Shown in pieces: positions 10,038-55,066 of a stretch of DNA of 64,000 bases (position 1 is the first letter of the stretch; every line of letters begins with the position of its first letter). The translations under genes were made by a program, and so were the position numbers. Source of the stretch: an uncultured bacterium (GTDB lineage: Bacteria > Patescibacteriota > Andersenbacteria > UBA10190 > CAIZMI01); assembly GCA_903934015.1 (NCBI GenBank), contig CAIZMI010000021.1:10868-74867 (forward strand), read 5' to 3'. The notes under the pieces are model-generated. The model ran no database searches. It worked only from the letters and a program-made list of their open reading frames with translations, and was not told where the DNA came from.

Positions 10038-10400
10038 ATGAAAAAAATAATAGCCTTCATCATTTATCTTTCGATATCCATTCCCTCGTTCGTTTCCGCT
10101 CAAGGTTTCGGTCAAGTGCCCGCGCCGATTAACATCGCCCCGCCGGCCGATTTTGGTACGTCAATATTAAATGTGATTAATTTCATTTTAGGTTTAATCG
10201 GAATAATTGCCTTCGCTTTTTTTATTTTCGGGGTTTTTCGTTATATCACGGCGGGAGGCAATGAAGATCAATTAGCCGAATCAAAGGGGACAATGACAAG
10301 TGCTTTATTTGGGGTATTGATAATGGGTGTGTCGGCTACGCTGATTAACTTTGTGGTCGGTCTTGTTACCGGCACTATTGGCGGAGGAAGCAGGTTTTAG
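10038..10400 (+). CDS. TrbC/VirB2-like pilin
   Basis: Signal peptide ending VSAQ; GVFRYITAGGNEDQLAESKGTMTSALFG core. Confidence 0.82.
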   Translation: MKKIIAFIIYLSISIPSFVSAQGFGQVPAPINIAPPADFGTSILNVINFILGLIGIIAFAFFIFGVFRYITAGGNEDQLAESKGTMTSALFGVLIMGVSATLINFVVGLVTGTIGGGSRF

Positions 10401-10423
10401 TGAGGTGATGGTGTATAGGTTCT

Positions 10424-10499
10424 GTCGTTCCTGCCCGTGAGCAGGAATCCGATTTTTTATTAAAACGCTTGCGGATCCCTGATCACGGCCAGGGATGAT
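10424..10499 (-). repeat. GTC-tagged palindrome doublet (reverse-orientation copy)
   Basis: gtcgttcctgcccgtgagcaggaatcc ... ggatccctgatcacggccagggatgat; matches the family at 14131, 41548 and 43094. Confidence 0.7.
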
Positions 10500-10562
10500 A
10501 TGGGTGAGTTTTGTCATTCTTGCCGAAAGCAGAAATCCGTCGTGTTGCTGTGTGCATTAAAC

Positions 10563-10610
10563 AAAAAAAAGAAGCAGTCGACGGTTGCATGCGATGCAAA
10601 CGTCAACTGC
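10563..10610 (-). terminator. Intrinsic terminator for the minus-strand gene
   Basis: gcagtcgacg...cgtcaactgc stem preceded on the + strand by an A tract. Confidence 0.55.
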
Positions 10611-10631
10611 CTGAATTGACCAAAGAACCAA

Positions 10632-11522
10632 CTACTGCGCCTCGTAGAAGCGCTTGGAGTGCACGCCGGGTGCTTGTTCTCTCGGACCCAAGGCCAGCGC
10701 GCTTTCGACTACGATGATCTCGTATTCACCTGGAGGAACAGTCTCCGTCAGGAAGACGACCCGGGCATTTAGCGCTGTCTCGGTTCCCATCCAATAGCGG
10801 AGGGGGTTTCGAGGCGAGAACTCTGACGTTGGCGGCGTGGCAAACTTGCCGTCGTTTCGATCGTCGATCCATCCAACCTGGAGGTTGGGGATCGGACCCA
10901 TCGTCGATAGGTAGTAGGTCTTCCCGAGCGGGAAGTCCAACTGTGACCCAAAGTCGATTCGGCTGATTCCGGGCATCCGGAATGGAATCGACCATTGCCC
11001 GGGGCCGATCGGATTGAGCTGTAGCTCACTCTCGGTTCGAGCAATCGGTCGCGGACGCTTGGAAATCGCCTCCCGCTCTCTTTCGATGCCACGTTTCACG
11101 CCGATTTTGACGCCTTCTCCTTTGCTTTCTTCTGCAATGTCCTGGTAGGACTTTGCAAGGTCGGGCTTCTTCGTGGCGACGATGTCGCTAGTCGGAGCAG
11201 GCTCGCCTGCGGGCTGATCTGCGAATCGTACGTCGGGGGCCGTCGCCGAAGAGTCTCTTCTTCCTGTTTCTCCGCGACCTGCGAAGAGAAAAGAAACTGT
11301 GGTCGCGAGAAGCATCGCTACGACCCCAACCGTCCTCCATTTCGGCGTGATACGTCGACTGAGGCCGTGCGGTAGATCGTAGTAACCAAGGGCGACACCT
11401 GTTGCGACTGCGAACGCCAGGATGGCGTATTGATCGCTCCCTCGGATACCGTATATGTCCGTGAGATAGAACCAAAAAACGACCGGGGCGACAAAAGCTA
11501 CGAGTTTCAAAATCTGCAACAT
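10632..11522 (-). CDS. Hypothetical membrane protein (three N-terminal TM segments, soluble C-domain)
   Basis: 296-aa ORF with GC3-rich codons, SD (gggaga) upstream, co-oriented with the SPFH-like gene. Confidence 0.65.
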   Translation of the reverse strand: MLQILKLVAFVAPVVFWFYLTDIYGIRGSDQYAILAFAVATGVALGYYDLPHGLSRRITPKWRTVGVVAMLLATTVSFLFAGRGETGRRDSSATAPDVRFADQPAGEPAPTSDIVATKKPDLAKSYQDIAEESKGEGVKIGVKRGIEREREAISKRPRPIARTESELQLNPIGPGQWSIPFRMPGISRIDFGSQLDFPLGKTYYLSTMGPIPNLQVGWIDDRNDGKFATPPTSEFSPRNPLRYWMGTETALNARVVFLTETVPPGEYEIIVVESALALGPREQAPGVHSKRFYEAQ

Positions 11523-15632: not shown

Positions 15633-16079
15633 AAAGGTAGCTCCGAAAAATTAGCCTGTTGCAAATTTTTTGGAGTTCATTGATTCTTGCGTAAAACATC
15701 TCCACGGGGTGTGGAGATGTTTTATGTACGTTTGATTGTTTTGCTTCGCAAAACTAATCCATGAGAGACTCGCCCTCGAAATATGCAATATCAATTGCAT
15801 ATTTCGAGGGCACCGGAAATCGGTTTTGCTACTAGCAAAACATCGATTTCCGTTCAAGTCTCTCGCGCGAATCACGAAGGTGATTCGCGCGCGCCAGATA
15901 CGGAGACTCGGCTTCGACTCGCTTTTTCTTCCGAAAAAGCGGTCTAGCCACCGCCTCGCCGTTTTGCTCGCCAGAATGCGAGCAAAACAAGGCTCCGGCG
16001 TTCGAGTCTCTCACGCAACACAAGCAGTTGTGTTGCGCGTGCCCACACTTAAAAAAGAGCCGAGGCTCTTTTTTAAGTG
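15633..16079 (-). repeat. tRNA-Leu-associated multi-hairpin element carrying copies of the tRNA T-arm/acceptor sequence
   Basis: Units 15763-15864 and 15903-16012 are bracketed by gagactcg/gttc(g/a)agtctctc; 15633-15678 matches 52811-52857 except for a 1-nt indel. Confidence 0.8.
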
Positions 16080-16160
16080 TGGGCACGGAGAGACTCGAAC
16101 TCTCACGACTTGCGTCACATGGTCCTAAGCCATGCGCGTATACCATTCCGCCACGTGCCC
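16080..16160 (-). tRNA. tRNA-Leu(TAG)
   Basis: Reverse complement gggcacgtggcggaatggtatacgcgcatggc-ttagga-ccatgtgacgcaagtcgtgagagttcgagtctctccgtgccca; long variable arm; CCA not encoded. Confidence 0.95.
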
Positions 16161-44572: not shown

Positions 44573-45151
44573 ATGTTTATAAAAGACATCGCAGAAGTTC
44601 AAGCCGGATTTGCTTTCCGTGAAGCCATTGTACCGAATCGTGAAGGAAATATTTGCGTTTTTCAGGCCAAGGATCTAGTTCAGGGGGTGCCTTTTACTAA
44701 TACTGCTTCTTTGATAAAAGTTTCCCTAGAATTGCCGGAATATGTTGGCCATCTTAGAAAAAATGACGTTCTTTTGGTTGCGCGGGGCATGAAAGCCGGA
44801 ACATTTCGTTCAACGGTCTTCAATACTGACGAAGTCAACGTGATTGCTTCTTCCTCTGTGCACATTATTCGCATTACCGCTAACGACGTTATTCCCGAAT
44901 ATGTTTCGCACTACTTGAATTGCAAGGATGGCCAGAATGCTATTTCGGAAATCTTATCCGGGGCGCATATTGGGGTAATACCGCGGAAAGAGTTGGAAAA
45001 TATGAAAATCCCGATACCGGTTATTGGTAAACAGAAATCAATAGTTAACTTAATGAATAATATGCGCGAGCAACAGCGAATAGTGGAAAAAAGAAACGCC
45101 TTGAAACAAGAAATTATCGATGGAACTTTTAGAAATCTAACCACCAAATAA
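44573..45151 (+). CDS. Half-size type I specificity-subunit-like protein (single TRD)
   Basis: IKDIAEVQAG, NDVLLVARG, PEYVSHYLN, L.NMKIPIP...Q.SIV plus C-terminal coiled coil. Confidence 0.75.
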   Translation: MFIKDIAEVQAGFAFREAIVPNREGNICVFQAKDLVQGVPFTNTASLIKVSLELPEYVGHLRKNDVLLVARGMKAGTFRSTVFNTDEVNVIASSSVHIIRITANDVIPEYVSHYLNCKDGQNAISEILSGAHIGVIPRKELENMKIPIPVIGKQKSIVNLMNNMREQQRIVEKRNALKQEIIDGTFRNLTTK

Positions 45152-45156
45152 AAATT

Positions 45157-46671
45157 ATGACTAATCCAACAAAATTCAATCAAGAAGATCTTAATAAAAC
45201 GCTCTGGGCGGCGGCGGACTCTTCGCGTAGTCAGTTGGCAGCGGAGGTATACAAAGATTATGTATTACCGATGTTGTTTTTGAAATACATCAGTGATTTA
45301 AACAAGAAACGGCGCGCCGAATATAAAGAACGTTTTGGCGCCGATGAAAAACGTATTGATGAAAAAATGAAACTGGATCGCTTTTATTTGCCGCCAAAAT
45401 CTTCGTTTGATTACATTTACGGCAAAATTGAGGAAGATAATATCGGAGAAGAAATTAACAAGGTTCTTGATCGCATTGAGGAAGCAAATAAAGAGAAACT
45501 CGACGGCGTATTCAGTGTTGATTTCAACTCGGAATCCGTTTTGGGAAAAATTGATCAACGCAACAAAATGTTGCGCCATCTAATTCAGGACTTTGCAAAA
45601 ATCGATTTGGCGGACGTTGGTGATGATATTATCGGCAATTCGTATATGTATATGATCGAGCGTTTTGGCGCCGATGCTGGTAAGAAGGCGGGCGAATTTT
45701 TTACCATGAGATCGGTAGCAAAACTGGTGGCAATGTTGGCCGAACCGCAAAAGGGCGACAGGATTGCGGACCCGGCCTGCGGATCAGGTGGCCTGCTTTT
45801 ATTGGCCGGTGAAGAAGTGGAGAAAAAAGGATCCAAGAATTACGCGCTTTATGGGCAGGAATCAACAGGCTCCACGTATCAGCTAGCACGGATCAATATG
45901 TTTCTTCATGGCAAGGATTCGGCGCGACTTGAATGGGGTGACACGCTGAATAATCCATTACTTGTGGAAAACGACCAATTGATGCATTTCGACGTGGTTG
46001 TTGCCAACCCGCCATTTTCCTTGAAAAAATGGGGTGCTGAACATGCAGGAGAAGATAAGTACAATCGCTTTTGGCGTGGTGTTCCTCCCAAGGATAAAGG
46101 TGATTACGCGTTTGTTACCCATATGGTGGAAACCGCCAAACCAAAAACCGGGCGCGTGGCGGTGATCGTACCGCACGGTGTTTTGTTTCGCGGGGGCGCG
46201 GAAGGTAGTATTCGCGAGCAATTTTTGAAGGAAAATATCATTGATACGGTGATTGGGCTTCCGGCGGGGCTGTTTCAAACAACGGGTATTCCGGTGGCGA
46301 TTCTGGTGATTGATCGGTCGCGCGAAAAGGGCGGAGCCAATGAAAACAAAAAAGATGTATTGTTTATCGAGGCCTCAAAAGAATTTAAGCCAGCGAAAGC
46401 CAAAAATATCTTAACCGAGGAAAACATTACGAAAATATTTGATACCTATAAACAACGTAAAAACGTCAAAAAGTTTTCCCGCAAAGTAAATTTTAAGGAA
46501 ATCGAAGAAAACGATTTCAATTTAAATATCACTCGCTACGTTGATACGTTTGAAGAAGAAGAGCCGATTGATATTAAGGCAAATCTAAAAGAATTGGAAA
46601 AGCTTGAACCGGAATTGAAAAAACTGGAAAAACAAATGGTGGAGTATTTAAAGGAATTGGGAATTAATTAA
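45157..46671 (+). CDS. hsdM: Type I R-M methyltransferase subunit
   Basis: GEFFT, DPACGSGG, VVANPPF, PHGVLFRGG, NLNITRY. Confidence 0.95.
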   Translation: MTNPTKFNQEDLNKTLWAAADSSRSQLAAEVYKDYVLPMLFLKYISDLNKKRRAEYKERFGADEKRIDEKMKLDRFYLPPKSSFDYIYGKIEEDNIGEEINKVLDRIEEANKEKLDGVFSVDFNSESVLGKIDQRNKMLRHLIQDFAKIDLADVGDDIIGNSYMYMIERFGADAGKKAGEFFTMRSVAKLVAMLAEPQKGDRIADPACGSGGLLLLAGEEVEKKGSKNYALYGQESTGSTYQLARINMFLHGKDSARLEWGDTLNNPLLVENDQLMHFDVVVANPPFSLKKWGAEHAGEDKYNRFWRGVPPKDKGDYAFVTHMVETAKPKTGRVAVIVPHGVLFRGGAEGSIREQFLKENIIDTVIGLPAGLFQTTGIPVAILVIDRSREKGGANENKKDVLFIEASKEFKPAKAKNILTEENITKIFDTYKQRKNVKKFSRKVNFKEIEENDFNLNITRYVDTFEEEEPIDIKANLKELEKLEPELKKLEKQMVEYLKELGIN

Positions 46672-46763
46672 AAGTAGTTTTATGGAAATAATTTTTACGC
46701 GATCAACATCAAATAATACTTTGTATGAGGTTCTTGAAAAATTGAAGCTGTTAAAATCGGTAT

Positions 46764-47963
46764 ATGAAAGCTAAGCAGGTAAAAAAAAATGGTTGTGATG
46801 GATGGTTGATAATAAAACTTGGTGATCTTGCTGTGATTAGTCGTGGTGGATCTCCTCGACCCATAGAGTCTTATATAACTGATGATAAAAATGGTCTTAA
46901 TTGGCTTAGGATTGGTGATATAAAACTGGGTGCTAAATATGTATATGGGACTAGTCAAAAAATAAAAAAAGAAGGACTATCAAAAACGACTCTGGTTGAG
47001 AGTGGTGACTTCATTCTCTCCAATTCAATGAGCTTTGGTCGTCCTTACATTATGAAAATAAGTGCATGCATTCATGATGGTTGGCTTGCACTTAGAAAGA
47101 TTAAAACTGATCTGGTTAGCAAGGAGTTTTTGTACTATTTATTATCGTCAAAAAAGATTCAGAACGATTTTGTGTCTATTTCTGCTGGGTCAGGTGTTCA
47201 GAATTTAAAAAAAGATACAGTGTCTACTGTTGCAGTAAAAATACCATTGGTTGATGAGCAGAACAGCATTGTCGCCGTCTTGGAAACATGGGATGAAGCG
47301 ATTGAAAAACTAACTAAAAAAATTGAAATTAAGAAGGCAATTAAAAAAGGATTGATGCAGGAATTGCTTAAGGGAAAAACTCGGTTGTCTGGGTTTAAGG
47401 ATAAATGGGAAGTTAAAAAACTAGGGGATGTGTGTGATATTGGCACTGGGAGTAAAAACAATCAAGATAAAATCAGCAATGGGGTTTATCCTTTTTATGT
47501 AAGGTCTCCTATTATCGAGCGAATTAACTCATATTCGTACGATGGAGAAGCAATACTAATTCCAGGGGAAGGAAATATTGGGAAAATATTTCATTATATA
47601 AATGGCAGATTTGATTTTCATCAGCGTGTGTATAAAATTAGTGACTTTAAATTAAACGTACTTGGTAAGTATCTCTATTACTATTTGGTTAAGCACTTTT
47701 CGAAAGCAACAAAATCAGATTCAGTTAAGGCGACAGTTGATTCTTTGCGTTTGCCCACCTTCACTAAATTTCAGGTTCAAATTCCAGCCTTAGCGGAACA
47801 AAAAGCAATTGTCGAAATTCTTGATGTTGCAAATGAGGAAGTAAAAAAATTACAAAAACAACTCACAATCCTTAAAGATCAAAAAAAGTTTCTGCTGAAC
47901 AATCTAATCACGGGCGCGATTCGCACGCCTGAAAAATTTAGCATTAAAACAACAAAGCGATGA
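46764..47963 (+). CDS. hsdS: Type I R-M specificity subunit (two TRDs)
   Basis: W..KLGD...RGGSPRP, P..EQ..IV..L, KKGLMQELL, second WEVKKLGDVC repeat. Confidence 0.93.
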   Translation: MKAKQVKKNGCDGWLIIKLGDLAVISRGGSPRPIESYITDDKNGLNWLRIGDIKLGAKYVYGTSQKIKKEGLSKTTLVESGDFILSNSMSFGRPYIMKISACIHDGWLALRKIKTDLVSKEFLYYLLSSKKIQNDFVSISAGSGVQNLKKDTVSTVAVKIPLVDEQNSIVAVLETWDEAIEKLTKKIEIKKAIKKGLMQELLKGKTRLSGFKDKWEVKKLGDVCDIGTGSKNNQDKISNGVYPFYVRSPIIERINSYSYDGEAILIPGEGNIGKIFHYINGRFDFHQRVYKISDFKLNVLGKYLYYYLVKHFSKATKSDSVKATVDSLRLPTFTKFQVQIPALAEQKAIVEILDVANEEVKKLQKQLTILKDQKKFLLNNLITGAIRTPEKFSIKTTKR

Positions 47964-48796
47964 ACAAAAAACAAGTGGACAGCACAAAGATCACCATTTT
48001 CGAGGAAAAAGAAGTGCGTCGAGTTTGGCACAACGAACAGTGGTATTTTGTTATTACCGACGTAATTCAGATTCTTACGGACTCCATTAATGCGAGTGAT
48101 TATCTTAAAAAGATGAGAATTCGTGATGAAGAGCTTTCCAAAGGGTGGGGACAAATTGTCACCCCCCTTCAGATTGAAACAAAAGGAGGAAAACAGACGA
48201 TAAATTGTGCCGATACTGAAGGGATTTTTCGCATTATTCAGTCAATTTCTTCTCCCAAGGCGGAGCCGTTCAAACGTTGGCTGGCCAGGGTAGGAAAAGA
48301 GCGCATCGAAGAAATTGCCGATCCTGAACTGGCTGTCACAAGGGCGAAGGAAATTTATGACAAGAAGGGTTATCCAAAGGATTGGGTTGATAAGCGAATA
48401 CGCGGTATTGCCGTTAGAAATACGTTAACTGATGAGTGGAAGCAAAGAGGTGTAATAAAGGGTCTTGAGTTTGCGATCTTAACCGATGAAATATATAAAG
48501 CAACTTTTGAAAAAACCGCCAAAGAATACATGGAACATAAGGGGCTTGATAAAAAAGCGGGTGATAATTTGCGCGATCATATGGGTGATATCGAATTGAT
48601 TTTAACAATGCTGGGTGAGGCGACGACGACAAAAGTCACGACGGAGAAAGATTCCAAGGGCTTGGAAGCGTTAAAAAAGGATGCGCAGGTTGGTGGTGGT
48701 ATCGCGGGACGAACGCGGAAAGACATTGAAGAAAAAACGGGAAAGAAAGTGGTATCAAGCGATAATTTTAAAAATTTGAAGCTTTTAAAGAAATGA
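47960..48796 (+). CDS. Bro-N domain protein (phage-antirepressor-like)
   Basis: VRRVW..EQWYFVITDV..L, IQSISSPKAEPFKRWLA.VG.ERIEE..DPELA. Confidence 0.85.
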   Translation: MNKKQVDSTKITIFEEKEVRRVWHNEQWYFVITDVIQILTDSINASDYLKKMRIRDEELSKGWGQIVTPLQIETKGGKQTINCADTEGIFRIIQSISSPKAEPFKRWLARVGKERIEEIADPELAVTRAKEIYDKKGYPKDWVDKRIRGIAVRNTLTDEWKQRGVIKGLEFAILTDEIYKATFEKTAKEYMEHKGLDKKAGDNLRDHMGDIELILTMLGEATTTKVTTEKDSKGLEALKKDAQVGGGIAGRTRKDIEEKTGKKVVSSDNFKNLKLLKK

Positions 48797-51700
48797 AAAT
48801 ACAGCAAAACGAAAATACCACATTAGGCAACGAATCTTATAGACCATTGCTAAAAGAAGTAAATTTTGACGAAGCGAAACAGTCACAGCTCCCGGCGATT
48901 GAAATGCTTTTGGCAATGGGTTACGAATATGTTTCTGTCGATGAGGCACTTCGGCAACGCGGGGGAGATATCGGCAATTTTATTCTCTCCAATGTCGCAA
49001 AAGAGAAATTGATGGAAATTAACGGGTACGAGGTGAACGGCGTGAAATATAAATTCAGCGAAAAAGATGTACAGGACGCGATTGATGAACTGGAGCATAT
49101 TCAATACGAAGGTCTAATCGATACGGCGCAGAAAATATACAACGTAATTATGCCGACGAGCGGTGGAAAAACGATCAAGGTTAGTATTGGCGGAAAAACC
49201 GTTTCCAAGAATTTTCGCTTTATCGATTTTGAAAATTTGGCAAACAATGTTTTTCACGTATCTGCGGAATTTGTCGCGTCCGGCAAACAAAATATTCGTC
49301 CTGATGTTGTTTGTTTTGTAAACGGTATTCCGTTTGCCGTAATCGAGAATAAAAAATCGAGTGTGAATGTTTCGGAAGCGATCAATCAAATGAATCGAAA
49401 TCAGGGGCCGGAATTTTGTCCGAAGCTTTTTACCTTCACGCAACTTTTAGTGGGGACAAATGGCAAAGAACTGGAATACGGGACAACGGGCACGCCGAAC
49501 AAATTTTATGTGGTCTGGAAAGAGAAGGGGATGGCGTTGGATAAAATTGATGCAAAATTGGCGACTTTGATCGCAAAGAAAATTAAGCCGGATATTTATG
49601 CGCAGATATTAACCGATTTGAATGGTTATACCAACGGGCACACACAGCGAACTGATCGCTTGCCAACCGAGCAGGACAGAGGAATTTTTGCGCTTTTTGA
49701 ACCAAAAAGACTTTTAGATTTGGCAAAAAATTATGTTTTGTTTGACGCGGGAATTAAAAAACTTTCTCGTTATCAGCAATATTTTGCGATTAATAAAATA
49801 TTAAATAGAATCAGGGAAGAAGAAACGATGCCAAATGGTACATCGAGACGCCGTGGTGGTTTGGTGTGGCACACGCAAGGATCCGGCAAGTCTTTAACGA
49901 TGGTGATGTTTGTCAAAGCGCTGATTGAAAATCAGGGGATAATTAATCCGCGAATTATCATTGTCACGGATCGGCGGGATTTGGATCGGCAGATTAAGGG
50001 AACTTTTAAGAATTGCAATTTAAAGAAAGAAGTAATTCAGGCGAAAAGTGGTCAGCATTTGTTGGAATTGATAAAAGAAAAAAACCTCGCGGTTATTACG
50101 ACAGTAATCGATAAGTTTGAGTCTGTGGCAAATAAGAACAAGAAGACATGTTTTGTTGATGCTGATAAAAATATCTTTGTGTTGGTTGACGAAGCGCATC
50201 GAAGTCAAAGCGGGATTGCCAATTTGGAGATGAATCGGATTATTCCGAACGCTTGTTATATCGGTTTTACCGGCACGCCGTTGATGAAAAAAGACCGTGA
50301 AAGCTGGAAAAAATTCGGCGGATACATTGATCAATACACGATTGACGACGCGTTGGCGGATAAAATTATTTTGCCGTTAATCTATGAGGGAAGATATGTC
50401 ACGATGGTGCAGAACGCGGAGCAGATTGATCGTCACGCCGAATATATCTCGGAGGATATTGTTAAGAAATTTGATACGAGTGCCGATTCAAAATTTCGAA
50501 CGCTACAGAAGCAAATTACGGCGGATGTTATCAAAAATAATCCTCAAAGAATCGAGGAAATTGCGCGTGATATAGAGAAACACTATTCCGAACATTTTAA
50601 AAATACCGGACTGAAAGCGCAAATTGTGGCCCCGTCCAAATTTTCGGCCATCAAATTTCAAAAGTTCTTCCAAGATCGTGGTAATTTATGCACGGCGGTG
50701 GTGATTTCTGATGAACATGATGATGGTGATGAAGAGGACACGCACAAGAAAGAAGTCGTTAATTATCTTGATACTGTTCGCAAAAAATACAGCAGTGTCG
50801 CCAAGTACGAGAAAGATGTGATTGATAGTTTTAAGTACAACGAGGATGGCATTGAGATTATTATTGTTGTTGATAAGTTGCTTACCGGCTTTGACGCGCC
50901 ACGCAACACCGTGCTTTACCTTGCAAAAGACCTGCGCGATCATAACTTGCTTCAGGCAATCGCCCGCGTGAATCGTTTGCATGAAAACAAGAAACGTCCC
51001 AAGACTGCCGGGTACATAATTGATTATTCGGAAAATGCCAAAAATATCGATACGGCGATGAAGTTGTTTGGCAATTACGATGAAAAAGATGTTAAAGGAA
51101 CGCTGATTGATGTTAAAGAGAAAGTACAGGAACTCGAGGAAGGTTATAGTCTTTTGCACGATATTTTTAAGGGGGTTGAAAGTACGACAGATGATGAAGC
51201 CTTTTTACGTTTTCTGGATGATGCGCCAAAACGAGAGATGTTTTATAAAGCGCTTAACGCGTTTATTAAGAATCTTAATGAATGTTTTGTGCTTCAGGAT
51301 TTTGTGCATGAATTTAAATATCTTGATATTTATACGCGGGAACTAAAAAAGTTTATGGAACTGCGTAAATCGGCCAGTCTAAAATATGCCGACCGCATTG
51401 ATTTGTCTGAATACAAGCAGGCACTGGTTAATATTTTGGACAAATACGTTGACGCTGAAGGTGTTGAACTTTTAACGAAGCAAATCAATATCACCGATCG
51501 TAAGCAATTTGAACAAGCGGTTGAAACATTGGGATCCGATAAATCAAAGGCGGAAGCCATTGCCGCGCAAACACAAAGAACGATTACGGAAAAAATGGAT
51601 TCGGATCCGGAATTCTATGACCGATTTTCCAAGAAAATTAGAGAAATCCTGCAGAAGATGTATGACGGAAAGATGGCGGATATTATCGCACTTAAACAGA

Positions 51701-52068
51701 TGAAACTTATCGAAGACGATGTTGTTGCAAAAAAAGACGCGAGTTTGCCGAAACCTATTGTCGCGGAAAAAGGTTCGGACGTATTCTTTCGCAATCTGCA
51801 TGGCTCATTTAATAAATTTAATTTGGAAGAGGAAGTTTATATCAGCTTGGTATTGGATATATTCCATATTGTAAAAGAAGAAGCAATTATCGACTGGCAC
51901 AATAATCTGGACGTAAAACGGCGCATGATTGGCGCAATTGATGATTTTCTTTATGACGTTGTTAAGCGGGAGCGGGGTGTTGACTTATCGGACGAGGACA
52001 TGAAAGCAATTATCGCGTCGGTAATGGCGCTTGCGGAGAACAATAATGGAATCTTTGTCGAATCTTAA
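48793..52068 (+). CDS. hsdR: Type I restriction endonuclease subunit R
   Basis: RPD..FVNGIP..VIENK nuclease motif, WHTQGSGKS, DEAHRSQ, FTGTP, LLTGFDAP, QAIARVNR. Confidence 0.95.
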   Translation: MKIQQNENTTLGNESYRPLLKEVNFDEAKQSQLPAIEMLLAMGYEYVSVDEALRQRGGDIGNFILSNVAKEKLMEINGYEVNGVKYKFSEKDVQDAIDELEHIQYEGLIDTAQKIYNVIMPTSGGKTIKVSIGGKTVSKNFRFIDFENLANNVFHVSAEFVASGKQNIRPDVVCFVNGIPFAVIENKKSSVNVSEAINQMNRNQGPEFCPKLFTFTQLLVGTNGKELEYGTTGTPNKFYVVWKEKGMALDKIDAKLATLIAKKIKPDIYAQILTDLNGYTNGHTQRTDRLPTEQDRGIFALFEPKRLLDLAKNYVLFDAGIKKLSRYQQYFAINKILNRIREEETMPNGTSRRRGGLVWHTQGSGKSLTMVMFVKALIENQGIINPRIIIVTDRRDLDRQIKGTFKNCNLKKEVIQAKSGQHLLELIKEKNLAVITTVIDKFESVANKNKKTCFVDADKNIFVLVDEAHRSQSGIANLEMNRIIPNACYIGFTGTPLMKKDRESWKKFGGYIDQYTIDDALADKIILPLIYEGRYVTMVQNAEQIDRHAEYISEDIVKKFDTSADSKFRTLQKQITADVIKNNPQRIEEIARDIEKHYSEHFKNTGLKAQIVAPSKFSAIKFQKFFQDRGNLCTAVVISDEHDDGDEEDTHKKEVVNYLDTVRKKYSSVAKYEKDVIDSFKYNEDGIEIIIVVDKLLTGFDAPRNTVLYLAKDLRDHNLLQAIARVNRLHENKKRPKTAGYIIDYSENAKNIDTAMKLFGNYDEKDVKGTLIDVKEKVQELEEGYSLLHDIFKGVESTTDDEAFLRFLDDAPKREMFYKALNAFIKNLNECFVLQDFVHEFKYLDIYTRELKKFMELRKSASLKYADRIDLSEYKQALVNILDKYVDAEGVELLTKQINITDRKQFEQAVETLGSDKSKAEAIAAQTQRTITEKMDSDPEFYDRFSKKIREILQKMYDGKMADIIALKQMKLIEDDVVAKKDASLPKPIVAEKGSDVFFRNLHGSFNKFNLEEEVYISLVLDIFHIVKEEAIIDWHNNLDVKRRMIGAIDDFLYDVVKRERGVDLSDEDMKAIIASVMALAENNNGIFVES

Positions 52069-52768
52069 TCGCAAATTCGTTTTTGGGTCATTTGAATATT
52101 GCTATGACTTGATTAAACAGGAACGAAAGACTTTGAGTCTTACGGTTACACCGAATTTACAGATTTTTTTGAAAAGTCCCAATCAAGCCGATAATAATCG
52201 CATTGATAAATTCCTGAAAAAGAAATGGTTCTGGCTTGAGAAACAGTTGGCGTATTTCCGAAAATTTCAGCGAAAACAATACAAAAAAGAATATGTTTCG
52301 GGTGAGAGCTTGTTTTATTTGGGGAAGCAATATCGTCTTCAAGTAAAACGAGGAAAAAATGAAAAAGTGTCTTTGTTGCGCGGATGCTTGTTAGTCATAA
52401 CGAAGAATTCGGTTTCTGACGGAGTGCACACAAAAAAATTAGTTACTAAATGGTTTGATGAGAAAACAAATAAAATTTTTAACGAGCGTTTTGAGGCAGT
52501 AAAAACATTGTTTGCTTATGATGAAATGCCAAAACTGGTTGTGAGAGATATGAAACGGCGGTGGGGAAGTTATAAAGATAATCATATAATCGGTCTCAAC
52601 CCCAAATTAATTCGTGTTCCAAAAGAGTGTATTGATTACGTCATCGCGCACGAAATGTGTCACGTGAAACATCGCGATCACGGAAAAGAATTTTATCGAT
52701 TATTAGAAAAAAAATATCCAAAATGGGAAAAAATTAAGGACAAGCTAGAGGAATTCGGGGTAAAGTAG
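52046..52768 (+). CDS. YgjP/DUF45 (M48-like) zinc metalloprotease, commonly downstream of hsdR
   Basis: SGESLFYLGKQY, MKRRWGS, DYVIAHEMCH..H..H...FY. Confidence 0.88.
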   Translation: MESLSNLNRKFVFGSFEYCYDLIKQERKTLSLTVTPNLQIFLKSPNQADNNRIDKFLKKKWFWLEKQLAYFRKFQRKQYKKEYVSGESLFYLGKQYRLQVKRGKNEKVSLLRGCLLVITKNSVSDGVHTKKLVTKWFDEKTNKIFNERFEAVKTLFAYDEMPKLVVRDMKRRWGSYKDNHIIGLNPKLIRVPKECIDYVIAHEMCHVKHRDHGKEFYRLLEKKYPKWEKIKDKLEEFGVK

Positions 52769-52772
52769 TTTT

Positions 52773-53100
52773 TTGTGTTGCTCTCGCGCTACAAATAAAA
52801 AACACACACCAAAGGTAGCTCCGAAAAATTAGCCTGTTGGCAAATTTTTTGGAGTTCTTCGGTTCTTGTGCAAAACGACTCAACAGGACGTTGAGTCGTT
52901 TTGTGTACATTGTATGGTTTCGCTTAGCGAAACAAATCTCGAGTGCGCTCGGAGGGACTCGGCTTCGCCTCGGCTAGCCACCGGTAAGCGGTTCCGTTTC
53001 GACGGAACATCGCTTACCGTTCTCGTCCCTCTCGCAACACAAGCAGTTGTGTTGCTCTCGCGCTACATAAACAAACCGCACCAAAGTGCAGTTTGTTTAT
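52773..53100 (-). repeat. tRNA-Arg(TCT)-associated multi-hairpin element
   Basis: 19-bp duplicate of the tRNA 3' end at 52943-52961; inverted degenerate copy at 53019-53067; 21-bp direct repeat 52773-52793 = 53047-53067. Confidence 0.8.
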
Positions 53101-53102
53101 TG

Positions 53103-53176
53103 TGCGCTCGGAGGGACTCGAACCCCCAACCTAGAGGTTAGAAACCTCTTGCTCTGTCCGGTTGAGCTACGAGCGC
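53103..53176 (-). tRNA. tRNA-Arg(TCT)
   Basis: Reverse complement gcgctcgtagctcaaccggacagagcaagagg-tttctaa-cctctaggttgggggttcgagtccctccgagcgca. Confidence 0.93.
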
Positions 53177-53290: not shown

Positions 53291-53364
53291 GGTGGCTATG
53301 GTTCAAAAGCAGAACGTCCGGTTGTGGTCCGGGAGACGAGGGGGCGGTACCCTCTAGCCACCCA
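53291..53364 (+). tRNA. tRNA-His(GTG) with non-canonical D and T loops
   Basis: G-1 then gtggcta/tagccac acceptor with C73; anticodon arm tccgg-ttgtggt-ccggg; T arm gaggg-ggcggta-ccctc. Confidence 0.8.
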
Positions 53365-53384: not shown

Positions 53385-53461
53385 GCCCCTGTAGCTCAGC
53401 TGGATAGAGCGCCTGGCTTCGGACCAGGAGGTCGTGGGTTCGAATCCTGCCGGGGGCACCA
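53385..53461 (+). tRNA. tRNA-Arg(TCG)
   Basis: gcccctgtagctcagctggatagagcg-cctgg-cttcgga-ccagg-aggtcgtgggttcgaatcctgccgggggcacca. Confidence 0.95.
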
Positions 53462-53778
53462 AGTAATATAAAACAGTCCCCTGGGACTGTTTTATATTAC
53501 TTCTAGAAGTACGGCAGGATTCGAAGGGAATGTAAAATAATTGAACTGCTTCAATTATTTTACATTCCCCGGCTTTCCCTACTACAAAATTCCTTCGAGC
53601 GAAGCGAGCGGAATTTTGTAGTAGGGAAAGGAGTCCTGCCGGAGACAAGCCACCTGCGTGTGTCGTGTGCGGATTCGAACGGCAATCGTTGTTTCGTTAG
53701 TAACGAAACCGATTGTCGGTGGCCAGAAAATTTTGTATCAACAAAAGTTTCGAGGCCGAATCCTGCCGGGGGCACCAA
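53462..53778 (+). repeat. tRNA-Arg(TCG)-associated multi-hairpin element
   Basis: Antisense T-arm copies at 53512-53525 and 53671-53679; sense copies at 53631-53641 and 53757-53777 (21-bp duplicate ending in CCA). Confidence 0.85.
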
Positions 53779-53854
53779 AAATCAATCACGCTGTTGTTTC
53801 AAGTTATCGTCTATTAAAACACAGTAATTGGTGATATCGTGAAAAAATAAAAAT

Positions 53855-55066
53855 ATGGAAATAGATAAAGGGAAATTAGAAAATAATATTTGGAAACTCT
53901 ATCTATACGAAACTTTGTATAGCTTGATGTTTTACACTCCTATTATTGTTTTGTTTTATCAGAGTAACGGACTGAAACTAACCCAGATAATGATTTTGCA
54001 GTCTATCAGTTCTATTGTTTGGATATTGGCGGAAATTCCCACCGGTCATTTTGCCGATGTTATTGGCAGAAGAAAGTCATTGCTTTTGACGGGTATTTTC
54101 GCAACTTTAGCTATGACTATATATGCGTTTGGAAACAGTTTTTTCTATTTTCTATTTGCTGTTTTATCTTGGGCTTTAGCTGGTGCATTTGTCTCTGGTG
54201 CAGATTCAGCTTTTATGTATGACAACTTAAAAGCGTTAGGAAGAGAGCATTCCTATAAAAAAGTCTGGGGTAATGCAACTTTCTTTTATTTAATAGGAGT
54301 CGCTGTGGCGAGTATTGTTGGTGGTTTTTTGGGTGGCCATAATTTACGCTACCCGTTTTTTGCGATGATCCCATTCTATCTGCTACTGATTCTTGTTTCA
54401 CTTTCTTTTTATGAACCTAAGCATATTAGTGATTTGACGACTAAAAATTCCATATTTAATTCACTGGGATTAATAAAAAAGGCAATTTTTCATAACAAAG
54501 AAATACGATGGTTGCTTATTTATTCCGCGATTATTACTAGTGCTATTAGTGTTTCTTACTGGTTGTATCAGCCTTATCTAAAATTATCTGGTCTTAGTAT
54601 TGTTTATTTTGGCTTGGTATTTGCATCTTTTAATTTGATTAGCGCCGTTAGTGCTAAGTACTCGCACATTCTTGAGGAGAAATTGGGTCGTAAGGTTTCT
54701 TTGGCTTCATTATTTATCCTTACTAGCCTTGGATATTTATTAATGGGGAAAATAATTTTTATTTTTAGCTTTGTTTTTGCTTTTACTTTTCAATTTGTCA
54801 GCGGTTTTTCATCAGTAGTGATTTCTGATTATGTTCACAAAGAAATCGATTCAAGTGTTAGAGCAACTACATTTTCTATAAAAAGCTTTATTGACCATAT
54901 ATTTTATGTACTAATGGCGCCAATGGTTGGGTGGATAGTAGATGTGTATACTTTGCCACAGGCCTTGATGGTTATGGGTGTAATAGTTGGTGTTGTTGGA
55001 TGTATTATTATCGGTGCCATGATGTTTCCAGCAAAAGAGTTCAGTAATCGAAAACAGAGTGAGTAA
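53855..55066 (+). CDS. MFS transporter
   Basis: EIPTGHFADVIGRRKSL motif A, SGADSAFMYD, about 12 hydrophobic segments; visibly AT-rich. Confidence 0.9.
   Translation: MEIDKGKLENNIWKLYLYETLYSLMFYTPIIVLFYQSNGLKLTQIMILQSISSIVWILAEIPTGHFADVIGRRKSLLLTGIFATLAMTIYAFGNSFFYFLFAVLSWALAGAFVSGADSAFMYDNLKALGREHSYKKVWGNATFFYLIGVAVASIVGGFLGGHNLRYPFFAMIPFYLLLILVSLSFYEPKHISDLTTKNSIFNSLGLIKKAIFHNKEIRWLLIYSAIITSAISVSYWLYQPYLKLSGLSIVYFGLVFASFNLISAVSAKYSHILEEKLGRKVSLASLFILTSLGYLLMGKIIFIFSFVFAFTFQFVSGFSSVVISDYVHKEIDSSVRATTFSIKSFIDHIFYVLMAPMVGWIVDVYTLPQALMVMGVIVGVVGCIIIGAMMFPAKEFSNRKQSE

Follow-up and report, generated by a model that had tools for sequence, protein, structure and literature searches.

A two-hairpin module bracketed by copies of the local tRNA T-arm in Patescibacteria, a probable selfish DNA element

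What are the hairpins that follow the gene for tRNA-Arg(TCG) in an uncultured member of the Patescibacteria, and why are they flanked by pieces of that same tRNA? The locus occupies positions 53462-53778 of the window, by which we mean the whole 64,000-nt stretch of DNA analyzed (G000:C21:10868-74867). G000 is the source genome (1.34 Mb, 64 contigs), and G001 is its congener. The stretch is formed by two stacked modules of different subtype, with the following features.

53292..53362, + strand: tRNA-His (Rfam), upstream of tRNA-Arg(TCG) and without a module of its own
53385..53461, + strand: tRNA-Arg(TCG), host of the two stacked modules
53461..53502, + strand: perfect 20-bp A/T-rich hairpin directly 3' of the tRNA, terminator-like in shape, without a call in the terminator scan
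53512..53525, + strand: module 1 (subtype b), antisense T-arm copy, 14/14 complementary to 53439-53452
53526..53569, + strand: module 1, first stem-loop, 20 bp, with a AACTGCTT loop
53573..53630, + strand: module 1, second stem-loop
53631..53642, + strand: module 1, sense tRNA copy from base 57, with one mismatch
53671..53680, + strand: module 2 (subtype a), antisense arm copied from T-arm bases 53-62, with the GAAC anchor at its end
53681..53717, + strand: module 2, stem-loop A
53718..53757, + strand: module 2, GGT linker and stem-loop B, whose base helix pairs GGCC 53721-53724 with GGCC 53754-53757
53758..53778, + strand: module 2, 21-nt direct repeat of the tRNA 3' end, starting at base 57

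The base helix of stem B in module 2 covaries with GGCT/AGCC across the family, and the region around the two modules folds at z = -14.6 relative to shuffled sequences. The antisense arm of module 2 is already mismatched at bases 63-64, as it is in the congener. Two further tRNA genes of the window carry related arrays.

53102..53176, - strand: tRNA-Arg(TCT), host gene
53032..53101, - strand: hairpin 3' of tRNA-Arg(TCT) and a small AACTGCTT hairpin
52961..53031, - strand: Arg(TCT) module with antisense arm (53019-53031), stem A, GGTGGCTAG and a shortened stem B
52943..52960, - strand: direct duplication of tRNA-Arg(TCT) bases 57-73
52814..52942, - strand: F1, another hairpin family, without tailoring, inserted directly behind base 73 of the duplicated Arg(TCT) end
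16079..16160, - strand: tRNA-Leu(TAG), host gene
16014..16078, - strand: 24-bp fold-back including an antisense acceptor-strand copy (16038-16046), then a AACTGCTT hairpin
15901..16012, - strand: Leu module 1 with antisense arm (16000-16012, 13/13), core and truncated sense copy (15901-15909)
15763..15891, - strand: Leu module 2 with a small hairpin, antisense arm (15852-15864, 12/13), stem A, GGTG, stem B and sense copy (15763-15771)
15636..15762, - strand: F1-type hairpin element after Leu module 2

A sequence-only reading of the window had described these three loci as one covarying element enclosed by copies of each host tRNA's own T-arm. Its three stem-A strings are found exactly where it had placed them (53680-53721 and the reverse complements of 15811-15852 and 52979-53019), the three host tRNAs are real according to both tRNA calls and Rfam, and the AACTGCTT hairpin loops are present at all three loci (53544, 53041 and 16022). 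The order of parts in the shared architecture also holds, with the exception that the full GGTGGCYAG is missing from the second Leu module, which has GGTG only. The T-arm brackets are present as described, and their extent can be narrowed: the antisense match is limited to about bases 53-64 of the tRNA, while the sense copy starts at base 57, the center of TTC^GA. The module is a two-hairpin core of ~100 bases, preceded by the local tRNA T-arm in antisense and followed by a direct copy of that tRNA's end, and in some ultra-small Patescibacteria it is found downstream of tRNA genes of many kinds. A type I restriction-modification island (44573-52768 of the window; two HsdS, HsdM, a Bro-N protein, HsdR and a YgjP-like peptidase) ends ~45 nt from the Arg(TCT) hairpin array, with no integrase among its scanned ORFs.

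The claim that the brackets follow the adjacent tRNA was examined with a neutral bracket rule, requiring an antisense copy of bases 54-63 and then a sense copy of bases 57-65, 40-260 nt apart. Relaxed ARAGORN calling gave 49 tRNAs in G000, from which 5 dubious calls were dropped, and 42 with a parsable T-loop were tested. The match to the adjacent tRNA exceeds chance, being found with the tRNA's own arm at 12/42 tRNAs, as opposed to 13/1620 combinations with the arm of another tRNA and 0/2000 random windows. Further modules in G000 lie behind the tmRNA and behind an intron-bearing tRNA-Asn. The latter gene (G000:C43:about 10200-10750, - strand) was missed by ARAGORN; it has a large structured insert in the anticodon loop, which on reading looks like a group I intron, and a tailored module behind it.

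No Rfam family matches the element, in agreement with the earlier suggestion that it is unnamed; in the window, Rfam 15 gives only tRNAs at gathering score, and a search by E-value adds weak hairpin-type matches far below the cut-off. A pattern scan of species-representative genomes gave at least 119 loci, and among the matches listed 55 follow a tRNA or tmRNA encoded on the same strand. By eye, 69 of the listed matches were kept as true, the other 50 being mostly non-hairpin matches from high-GC genomes. The kept loci include, among others, records of Parcubacteria, Uhrbacteria, Kerfeldbacteria, Magasanikiibacteriota, Yanofskybacteria, Taylorbacteria, Saccharibacteria and Microgenomates. Named carrier records among the matches listed are mostly Patescibacteria; about a dozen are labelled "uncultured Gammaproteobacteria", one of them a genome of 0.8 Mb that may be mislabelled.

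In an alignment of 61 cores with the brackets removed, 89.4% of the cells are paired and 390 changes are two-sided, and neither value was reached in 500 shuffles; slid controls of the same alignment are 28-40% paired. The invariant anchors of the alignment are forced, because the sequences were selected by pattern and the structure was drawn on the alignment. The covariation at the foot of stem B, in contrast, is not forced, the pairs there being GGCC/GGCC in 46 cores, GGCT/AGCC in 36 and other combinations in 8 (n=90). The fold is a three-way junction consisting of the tRNA-derived closing helix, stem A, the GGT linker and stem B, followed by base 57, and tandem GA/GA mismatches recur in stems A and B.

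In G000, where 150 of 226 candidates were scored, a covariance model finds at least 24 matches with E <= 0.05, of which Leu module 1 of the window is the best. On reading, 16 of the 24 lie downstream of a tRNA or tmRNA, and 5 sit in the T-loop of a broken, 5'-duplicated tRNA copy upstream of the intact gene. Another 2 have Ser brackets but no tRNA beside them: one lies 3.8 kb beyond tRNA-Ser, past a recombinase-type island, and the other at a contig start. The remaining match is weak and lies at a non-tRNA site, and a second divergent non-tRNA copy is also present. The expectation that such a model would hit only beside tRNAs stands for 23/24 matches in G000, which are tied to a tRNA or tmRNA, and is weakened only a little by two divergent relatives at non-tRNA sites. 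These relatives (G000:C8:164-290 and C21:1387-1560, both outside the window) share a different left end, and one has another element nested in stem B. The broken 5' copies that hold a core are found upstream of the intact genes at G000:C18:20680-21000 (Arg(CCG)), C34:34400-34510 (Arg(GCG)) and C48:7000-7110 (Pro(CGG)); the Arg(CCG) locus has three tandem 100-bp core units. Tandem copies also occur.

Within the phylum, the model identifies carriers in at least 5/151 genomes, G000 included (28 candidates scored per genome), and four of the five have 3-23 copies. A stricter pattern matches 6/401 phylum genomes, one of them by a single non-hairpin-looking match, and a loose first pattern stays at background level in all relatives but G001. 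Ten of the 13 model matches outside G000 were inspected, all of them outside the training set: 9 follow a tRNA immediately and have brackets that match it, and 1 is located at the start of a contig. In G001, the same families occupy a partly different set of tRNAs than in G000. An assembly artefact is ruled out by the many independent assemblies that carry the family. At the locus itself, a contig of run X3 (from the same study as a possible source run) equals 53455-54100 without difference, and contigs of four DNA runs show no joint that removes a module, with the limit that contigs drop rare variants.

How closely do the brackets follow the host tRNA? In 72 modules, the identity of the antisense arm to the tRNA is 0.89-1.0 at bases 57-62, 0.79 at base 63 and 0.61 at base 64, and reaches background beyond base 65. 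At bases 59-64, the arm agrees with its own tRNA at a mean of 5.3 of 6 positions (64 modules), compared with 3.5 when the pairing is permuted and a maximum of 3.84 in 5000 permutations. The smaller set results from dropping 8/72 rows in which the wrong upstream tRNA had been paired or the core was miscut, and the two sets agree. The cores cluster with their genome instead of with tRNA type: the closest core belongs to the same genome or genus in 22/24 cases and to the same isoacceptor in 3/24. Mobility is indicated by this grouping, by the different occupancy in G000 and G001, by carriers with 3-23 copies among few carriers overall, and by the tandem copies. In G000, the stem A behind Leu(TAG) is 98% identical to that behind Arg(CCT), while the arms differ and each fits its own tRNA.

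Base 55 is absent from the right bracket, and it is nevertheless mirrored in the antisense arm. Since the GGAC variant occurs in only 1/401 phylum genomes, it was followed into metagenomes, where 5/5 copies stand directly behind tRNAs with a T55C loop, a rare loop present in 8/174 tRNAs; two of the five loci (L203 and L206) are near-identical. Locus L179 and Pro(GGG) of G000 agree with this mirroring, and one exception is the GGAC copy behind Arg(CCT) of G000, whose tRNA now has a TTC loop. The orthologous Arg(GCG) loci L046 and L203/L206 (alignment mean column identity 95%) have tRNAs that differ at bases 55, 67 and 70, and all differences within bases 53-73 are mirrored, base 55 in the antisense arm and bases 67 and 70 in the direct copy. 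The permutation test on 64 modules, base 55 and the Arg(GCG) loci uphold the earlier claim that the brackets are copied from the local tRNA. On the basis of the matched arms and the two kinds of mirroring, the brackets are copied anew with every landing or else undergo continual conversion, and it is likely that the targeting arm is rewritten from whichever tRNA gene the element lands in.

In the Arg(TCT) module of the window, GA replaces TC opposite G57-A58. One lineage keeps GA at this place while its bases 59-64 are tailored, which would fit the filling of a short gap between fixed anchors better than the copying of a whole arm. Exact duplication on the right extends 9-21 nt from the fixed left edge at base 57, and in other genomes it runs through the next hairpin. 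Since bases 57-73, and often more, are duplicated, the tRNA stays intact. A count of "fossil" sites, left against right, gave 22 vs 8, a comparison confounded by truncated right brackets. Behind tRNA-Ala(CGC) of G000 (G000:C48:4900-5127), the right bracket fits the intact Ala(CGC) 3' end at L008 of G001 and not its own tRNA, which suggests that the G000 allele was replaced after the duplication.

A conserved fold beside a tRNA could also be a functional RNA acting in cis. The read-through transcript would fold, the arm would sequester the T-arm or guide 3' processing, and selection would keep the match. The strong covariation is consistent with such a role, as is the observation that the sense strand, folded as RNA, is better than the antisense strand in 84/90 cores. 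Similarly, the co-variation at base 55 fits selection for pairing, and half of the mismatches at base 64 are of wobble type (11/22). On the other hand, the stems contain no excess of G-U over A-C: G-T accounts for 28 cells and A-C for 31, some of which may be alignment error, and the G-T share is 2.1% in contrast to 4.5% in the acceptor and T stems of 152 tRNAs. The element matches nothing in Rfam, is lacking from most sampled Patescibacteria, and differs in occupancy between congeners. Copies survive far from a tRNA, beyond integrated islands, and inside broken tRNA copies, and identical cores with different arms imply change faster than stepwise selection. The apical loops are uninformative for DNA versus RNA (GNA triloops in 3/89 stem A, GNRA in 12/81 stem B, UNCG nearly absent).

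The earlier suggestion of a structured RNA in tRNA 3' processing or sequestration is accordingly weakened by the patchy and multi-copy distribution, the differences between congeners, the G-T and A-C counts and the near absence of UNCG loops, and we consider a functional cis RNA improbable. Between G000 and G001, orthologous hairpins have changed on both arms in step and are still almost perfect. This concerted change of the arms, the G-T counts, the patchy multi-copy distribution and the surviving displaced copies favor, though not conclusively, an element at the level of DNA, and we hold with some confidence that the module is selfish DNA.

The modules could also be passive debris without dedicated mobility, namely leftovers of islands or nuclease cassettes at tRNA 3' ends, matched to the tRNA by hairpin correction through template switching and shuffled by gene conversion. 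Direct 3' duplications are typical of the ends of integrated islands, and these tRNA loci are full of recombinase islands and of LAGLIDADG and GIY-YIG cassettes. Moreover, all hairpins there change on both arms together, and no dedicated enzyme has been found. Debris, however, would not repeatedly gain an antisense arm in a fixed register or reach 16 sites downstream of a tRNA or tmRNA in one genome, and the fixed core, the conserved anchors and the fixed junction recur in distant groups of Patescibacteria. Debris is, in our judgment, a rather improbable explanation.

The other hairpins of these genomes are of several kinds. At many tRNAs of G000 and G001, the start of F1 falls exactly behind base 73, either of the tRNA itself or of a duplicated tRNA end; in G000, 11/11 exact left ends are downstream of a tRNA. 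The right end of F1 consists of GTAG and a hairpin, read on the opposite strand. At tmRNA and tRNA loci, left ends resembling those of F1 are found ahead of GIY-YIG ORFs. The G000 genome as a whole contains 218 perfect hairpins whose stems are >=11 bp long, among them several REP-like families without a link to tRNAs, and it has 5 Y1 transposase genes.

Long flanks were available for 47 module loci, and the mobile-type neighbors that recur there are small GIY-YIG proteins (3), serine recombinase-like proteins (3) and HTH/LAGLIDADG-like proteins (2), the last two labels coming from reading of the sequences. No protein family is tightly linked across these loci, and the element looks non-autonomous, as had been supposed. 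Free-standing HTH/LAGLIDADG-like ORFs, recognized by reading of translations, also occur directly 3' of tRNAs (G000:C1, C34, C44 and C59, and L030); in L030 the ORF is placed between tRNA-Glu and its module.

The GIY-YIG proteins have been found joined to parts of the element. Genome G112 has two GIY-YIG cassettes of 359 bp, identical at 332/359 positions, each placed behind base 73 of a different Ser tRNA. The encoded GIY-YIG protein has 80 residues, and its ORF is followed by a right end as in the G112 modules and then by a tRNA-matched copy from base 57. One of these Ser tRNAs (L314/L316, G112:C5) is called with the unusual anticodon ACT. Similar joins of an ORF to the right end are seen at the tmRNA of G000 and G001 (PF01541) and in L094, and there are none in G180. 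Among relatives of a G000 GIY-YIG gene, 25/30 adjoin a tRNA, and 5/30 have a two-hairpin insert at position 56/57 of a 5'-duplicated tRNA; the core itself occupies this 56/57 position in the 5'-duplicated copies at three G000 loci. The tRNA-linked GIY-YIG protein of G000 keeps the motif residues, and its closest structures are UPF0213. Cassettes behind a duplicated 5' tRNA part and upstream of the intact tRNA, with hairpins at 56/57, are located at G000:C55:51177-51700 (L234), at L004 of G001 and at L242, L244, L245 and L253, and other such cassettes are inserted in the D-arm, the anticodon arm or the variable region.

These observations make a small GIY-YIG nuclease acting in trans the probable helper enzyme. 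Against this assignment, one carrier genome, G180 (100% complete, 6 contigs), has 5 modules and only a UvrC-sized GIY-YIG match. GIY-YIG matches, UvrC-sized ones included, occur in 39/39 class genomes searched, most of which are without the element. The right-end joins never have both ends, and no complete element with both an antisense arm and an ORF was found; of 90 ORF matches, with duplicates counted, only 3 distinct cassettes pass the right-end rule. When 70 GIY-YIG loci were searched with the model, 6 cores were found, and in no case did one lie between a 5' copy of a tRNA and an ORF downstream. Judged by their C-terminal motifs, the joined ORFs look like members of different GIY-YIG groups, and they may therefore be later invaders that captured the right end. 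In addition, since the G112 cassettes duplicate the tRNA end in the same way without an antisense arm, the arm may not be needed for landing.

Another enzyme could serve the same selfish element. In one version, the arm is a DNA guide for an HUH transposase (Y1/RAYT), as in IS608; in another, the fold rebuilds a site for a host recombinase of the XerC/D type. IS608 chooses its targets by base pairing that can be extended to 12-17 nt (PMC5934647). In 4/4 window modules tested, pairing of the arm is stronger with the intact T-arm than with its duplicate, and a single tyrosine recombinase is present in 5/5 carriers, including G180, which also has a Y1 protein. The tyrosine recombinase of G000 is encoded on another contig than the window. 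Y1 matches, by comparison, are present in 4/7 carriers, with none in G112, G371 and G088, and reverse transcriptases in 2/5. IS110 (PF01548) is present in only 1/5 carriers. No transposase or integrase family is clustered among the 47 module loci or was found with 33 ORF queries from the window, and neither an HUH nor a Xer enzyme accounts for the rewriting of the arm. Peel-and-paste insertion is not known to produce a target duplication, and in this the module differs. A different enzyme of this kind is possible and, we think, unlikely. The reverse-transcriptase matches comprise four in G000 (C54, C55, C19 and C29) and none in G001.

Several known systems share parts of this anatomy. Integrase attL/attR sites in tRNA T-loops consist of a direct duplication of the 3' end that starts in the T-loop and leaves the gene intact, and the module has the same direct repeat. 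Unlike them, it has no integrase inside or beside it among the window ORFs scanned, is ~100 bp long, has an antisense arm and occupies many tRNA types per genome. MITEs derived from DDE transposons differ in that at most 5/12 terminal bases are complementary in 14 G000 inserts, the inverted pair of the module being tRNA-derived, and in that the duplication spans 9-21 nt from base 57 and not a short fixed length. The bridge-RNA systems of IS110/IS1111 differ in their DEDD recombinase (PF01548), present in a single carrier as given above.

Closer likenesses are found among hairpin repeats. Ssn nucleases are small single-domain GIY-YIG proteins that cut single-stranded DNA beside cognate hairpins, and the corresponding multi-copy ssDNA hairpin repeats (NTS/SRM) have been proposed to be IS200/REP-like (Chenal et al. 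2025, PMC11893778). The degenerate SRM consensus, however, matches 0/61 cores and 0/3 window loci. In the main text of that paper, SRMs are of fixed sequence, "tRNA" occurs 0 times, and neither a target duplication nor a target-matched arm is described (PMC11893778). The REP/REPIN/BIME-RAYT repeats are likewise non-autonomous palindromes that form intragenomic populations (Di Nocera et al. 2013, PMC3733652), and that paper does not link CGTC repeats with GIY-YIG genes (0 occurrences). In contrast to REPs, GTAG is present anywhere in only 8/61 cores, CGTC is not among the conserved columns, no RAYT/Y1 cluster accompanies the 47 module loci, and the module is strictly targeted to the T-loop with tailored brackets. 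In IS608 and the IS200-IS605 family, a structured single-stranded end can pair with the target strand beside the insertion point, as the module could; the natural IS608 guide is 4 nt and fixed, whereas the pairing of the module is ~12 nt and locus-specific and comes with a duplication of about 9-21 nt (PMC5934647).

SegB, a GIY-YIG enzyme of phage T4 encoded among tRNA genes, recognizes GGTTCRANTCC of the T-arm in many tRNAs (PMC2330249). It differs in cutting double-stranded DNA, preferably after the CCA end, and in spreading its own gene by homing, and it produces neither a hairpin element nor an antisense arm nor a T-loop duplication (PMC2330249). Theta ribozymes, which are HDV-like, are conserved structured elements just 3' of diverse phage tRNAs (PMC10879173). 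The module has no match to the HDV family, is a branched two-hairpin three-way junction with tRNA-copy brackets, and its core starts 7-400 nt after the tRNA. It is also not found in the viral sequences searched: phage and plasmid records gave no blastn match to the element, and viral contigs gave 1 pattern match, a chance one inside a coding region. By analogy, the element appears to behave like the RAYT and Ssn hairpin repeats and to pick its sites like SegB and the tRNA integrases, and it may read its target like IS608.

The junction is fixed at base 57, the 3' end of the tRNA is duplicated, the brackets match the target, the core is spread among tRNA types, and the stems change on both arms. 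The reading that we prefer is a non-autonomous selfish DNA that lands at the center of the T-loop with the help of a small GIY-YIG nuclease encoded elsewhere, to which we give a rough probability of 0.55. For its movement we propose a cycle in which both the nicking by a nuclease and the order of the steps are conjectural. The tRNA-sense strand, while single-stranded during replication or transcription, would fold into the three-way junction, which would be closed by pairing of the antisense arm with the intact T-arm or its duplicated copy. A structure-reading nuclease, presumably the small GIY-YIG protein in trans, would then nick beside stem B at base 57. Strand-displacement repair synthesis from the nick could produce the duplication of bases 57-73, sometimes more, and the occasional tandem copies. 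Finally, nick, trimming and filling, or a template switch within the fold-back, would rewrite the variable part of the arm of ~6 bases (opposite bases 59-64) from the upstream tRNA.

A further step is to see the module as self-retargeting mobile DNA, that is, a minimal single-stranded element with a base-pairing T-arm guide, cut and inserted at TTC^GA by a GIY-YIG protein of 80-90 residues in trans, and with the guide rewritten for each target. As a complete scheme this is tentative, a possibility that we would not bet on, and there is a real chance that such an element is of a new kind. No description of the tRNA-bracketed element turned up in the literature searched, although it may be listed in supplementary material such as that of the Ssn paper or of large surveys of structured RNAs.

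REPs, REPINs, SRMs and MITEs are fixed sequences, whereas the tRNA-bracketed element alters part of itself for each target and tracks single-base variants of the tRNA. If the self-retargeting scheme is true, it would be a naturally reprogrammed, DNA-guided insertion system without a transposase, a recombinase or an RNA guide, with a small anatomy of about 150 nt and an 80-residue protein. If the arm is a guide, the module would represent natural insertion of DNA that is programmed by its target, a site that is safe and more conserved than any other in a genome. It would then also provide a concrete substrate and reaction for the thousands of uncharacterized small GIY-YIG proteins. In Patescibacteria, streamlined as their genomes are, several families of tRNA-parasitic elements are present and compete for two positions, bases 56/57 and 73/74, and these families may drive the concerted evolution of tRNA ends.
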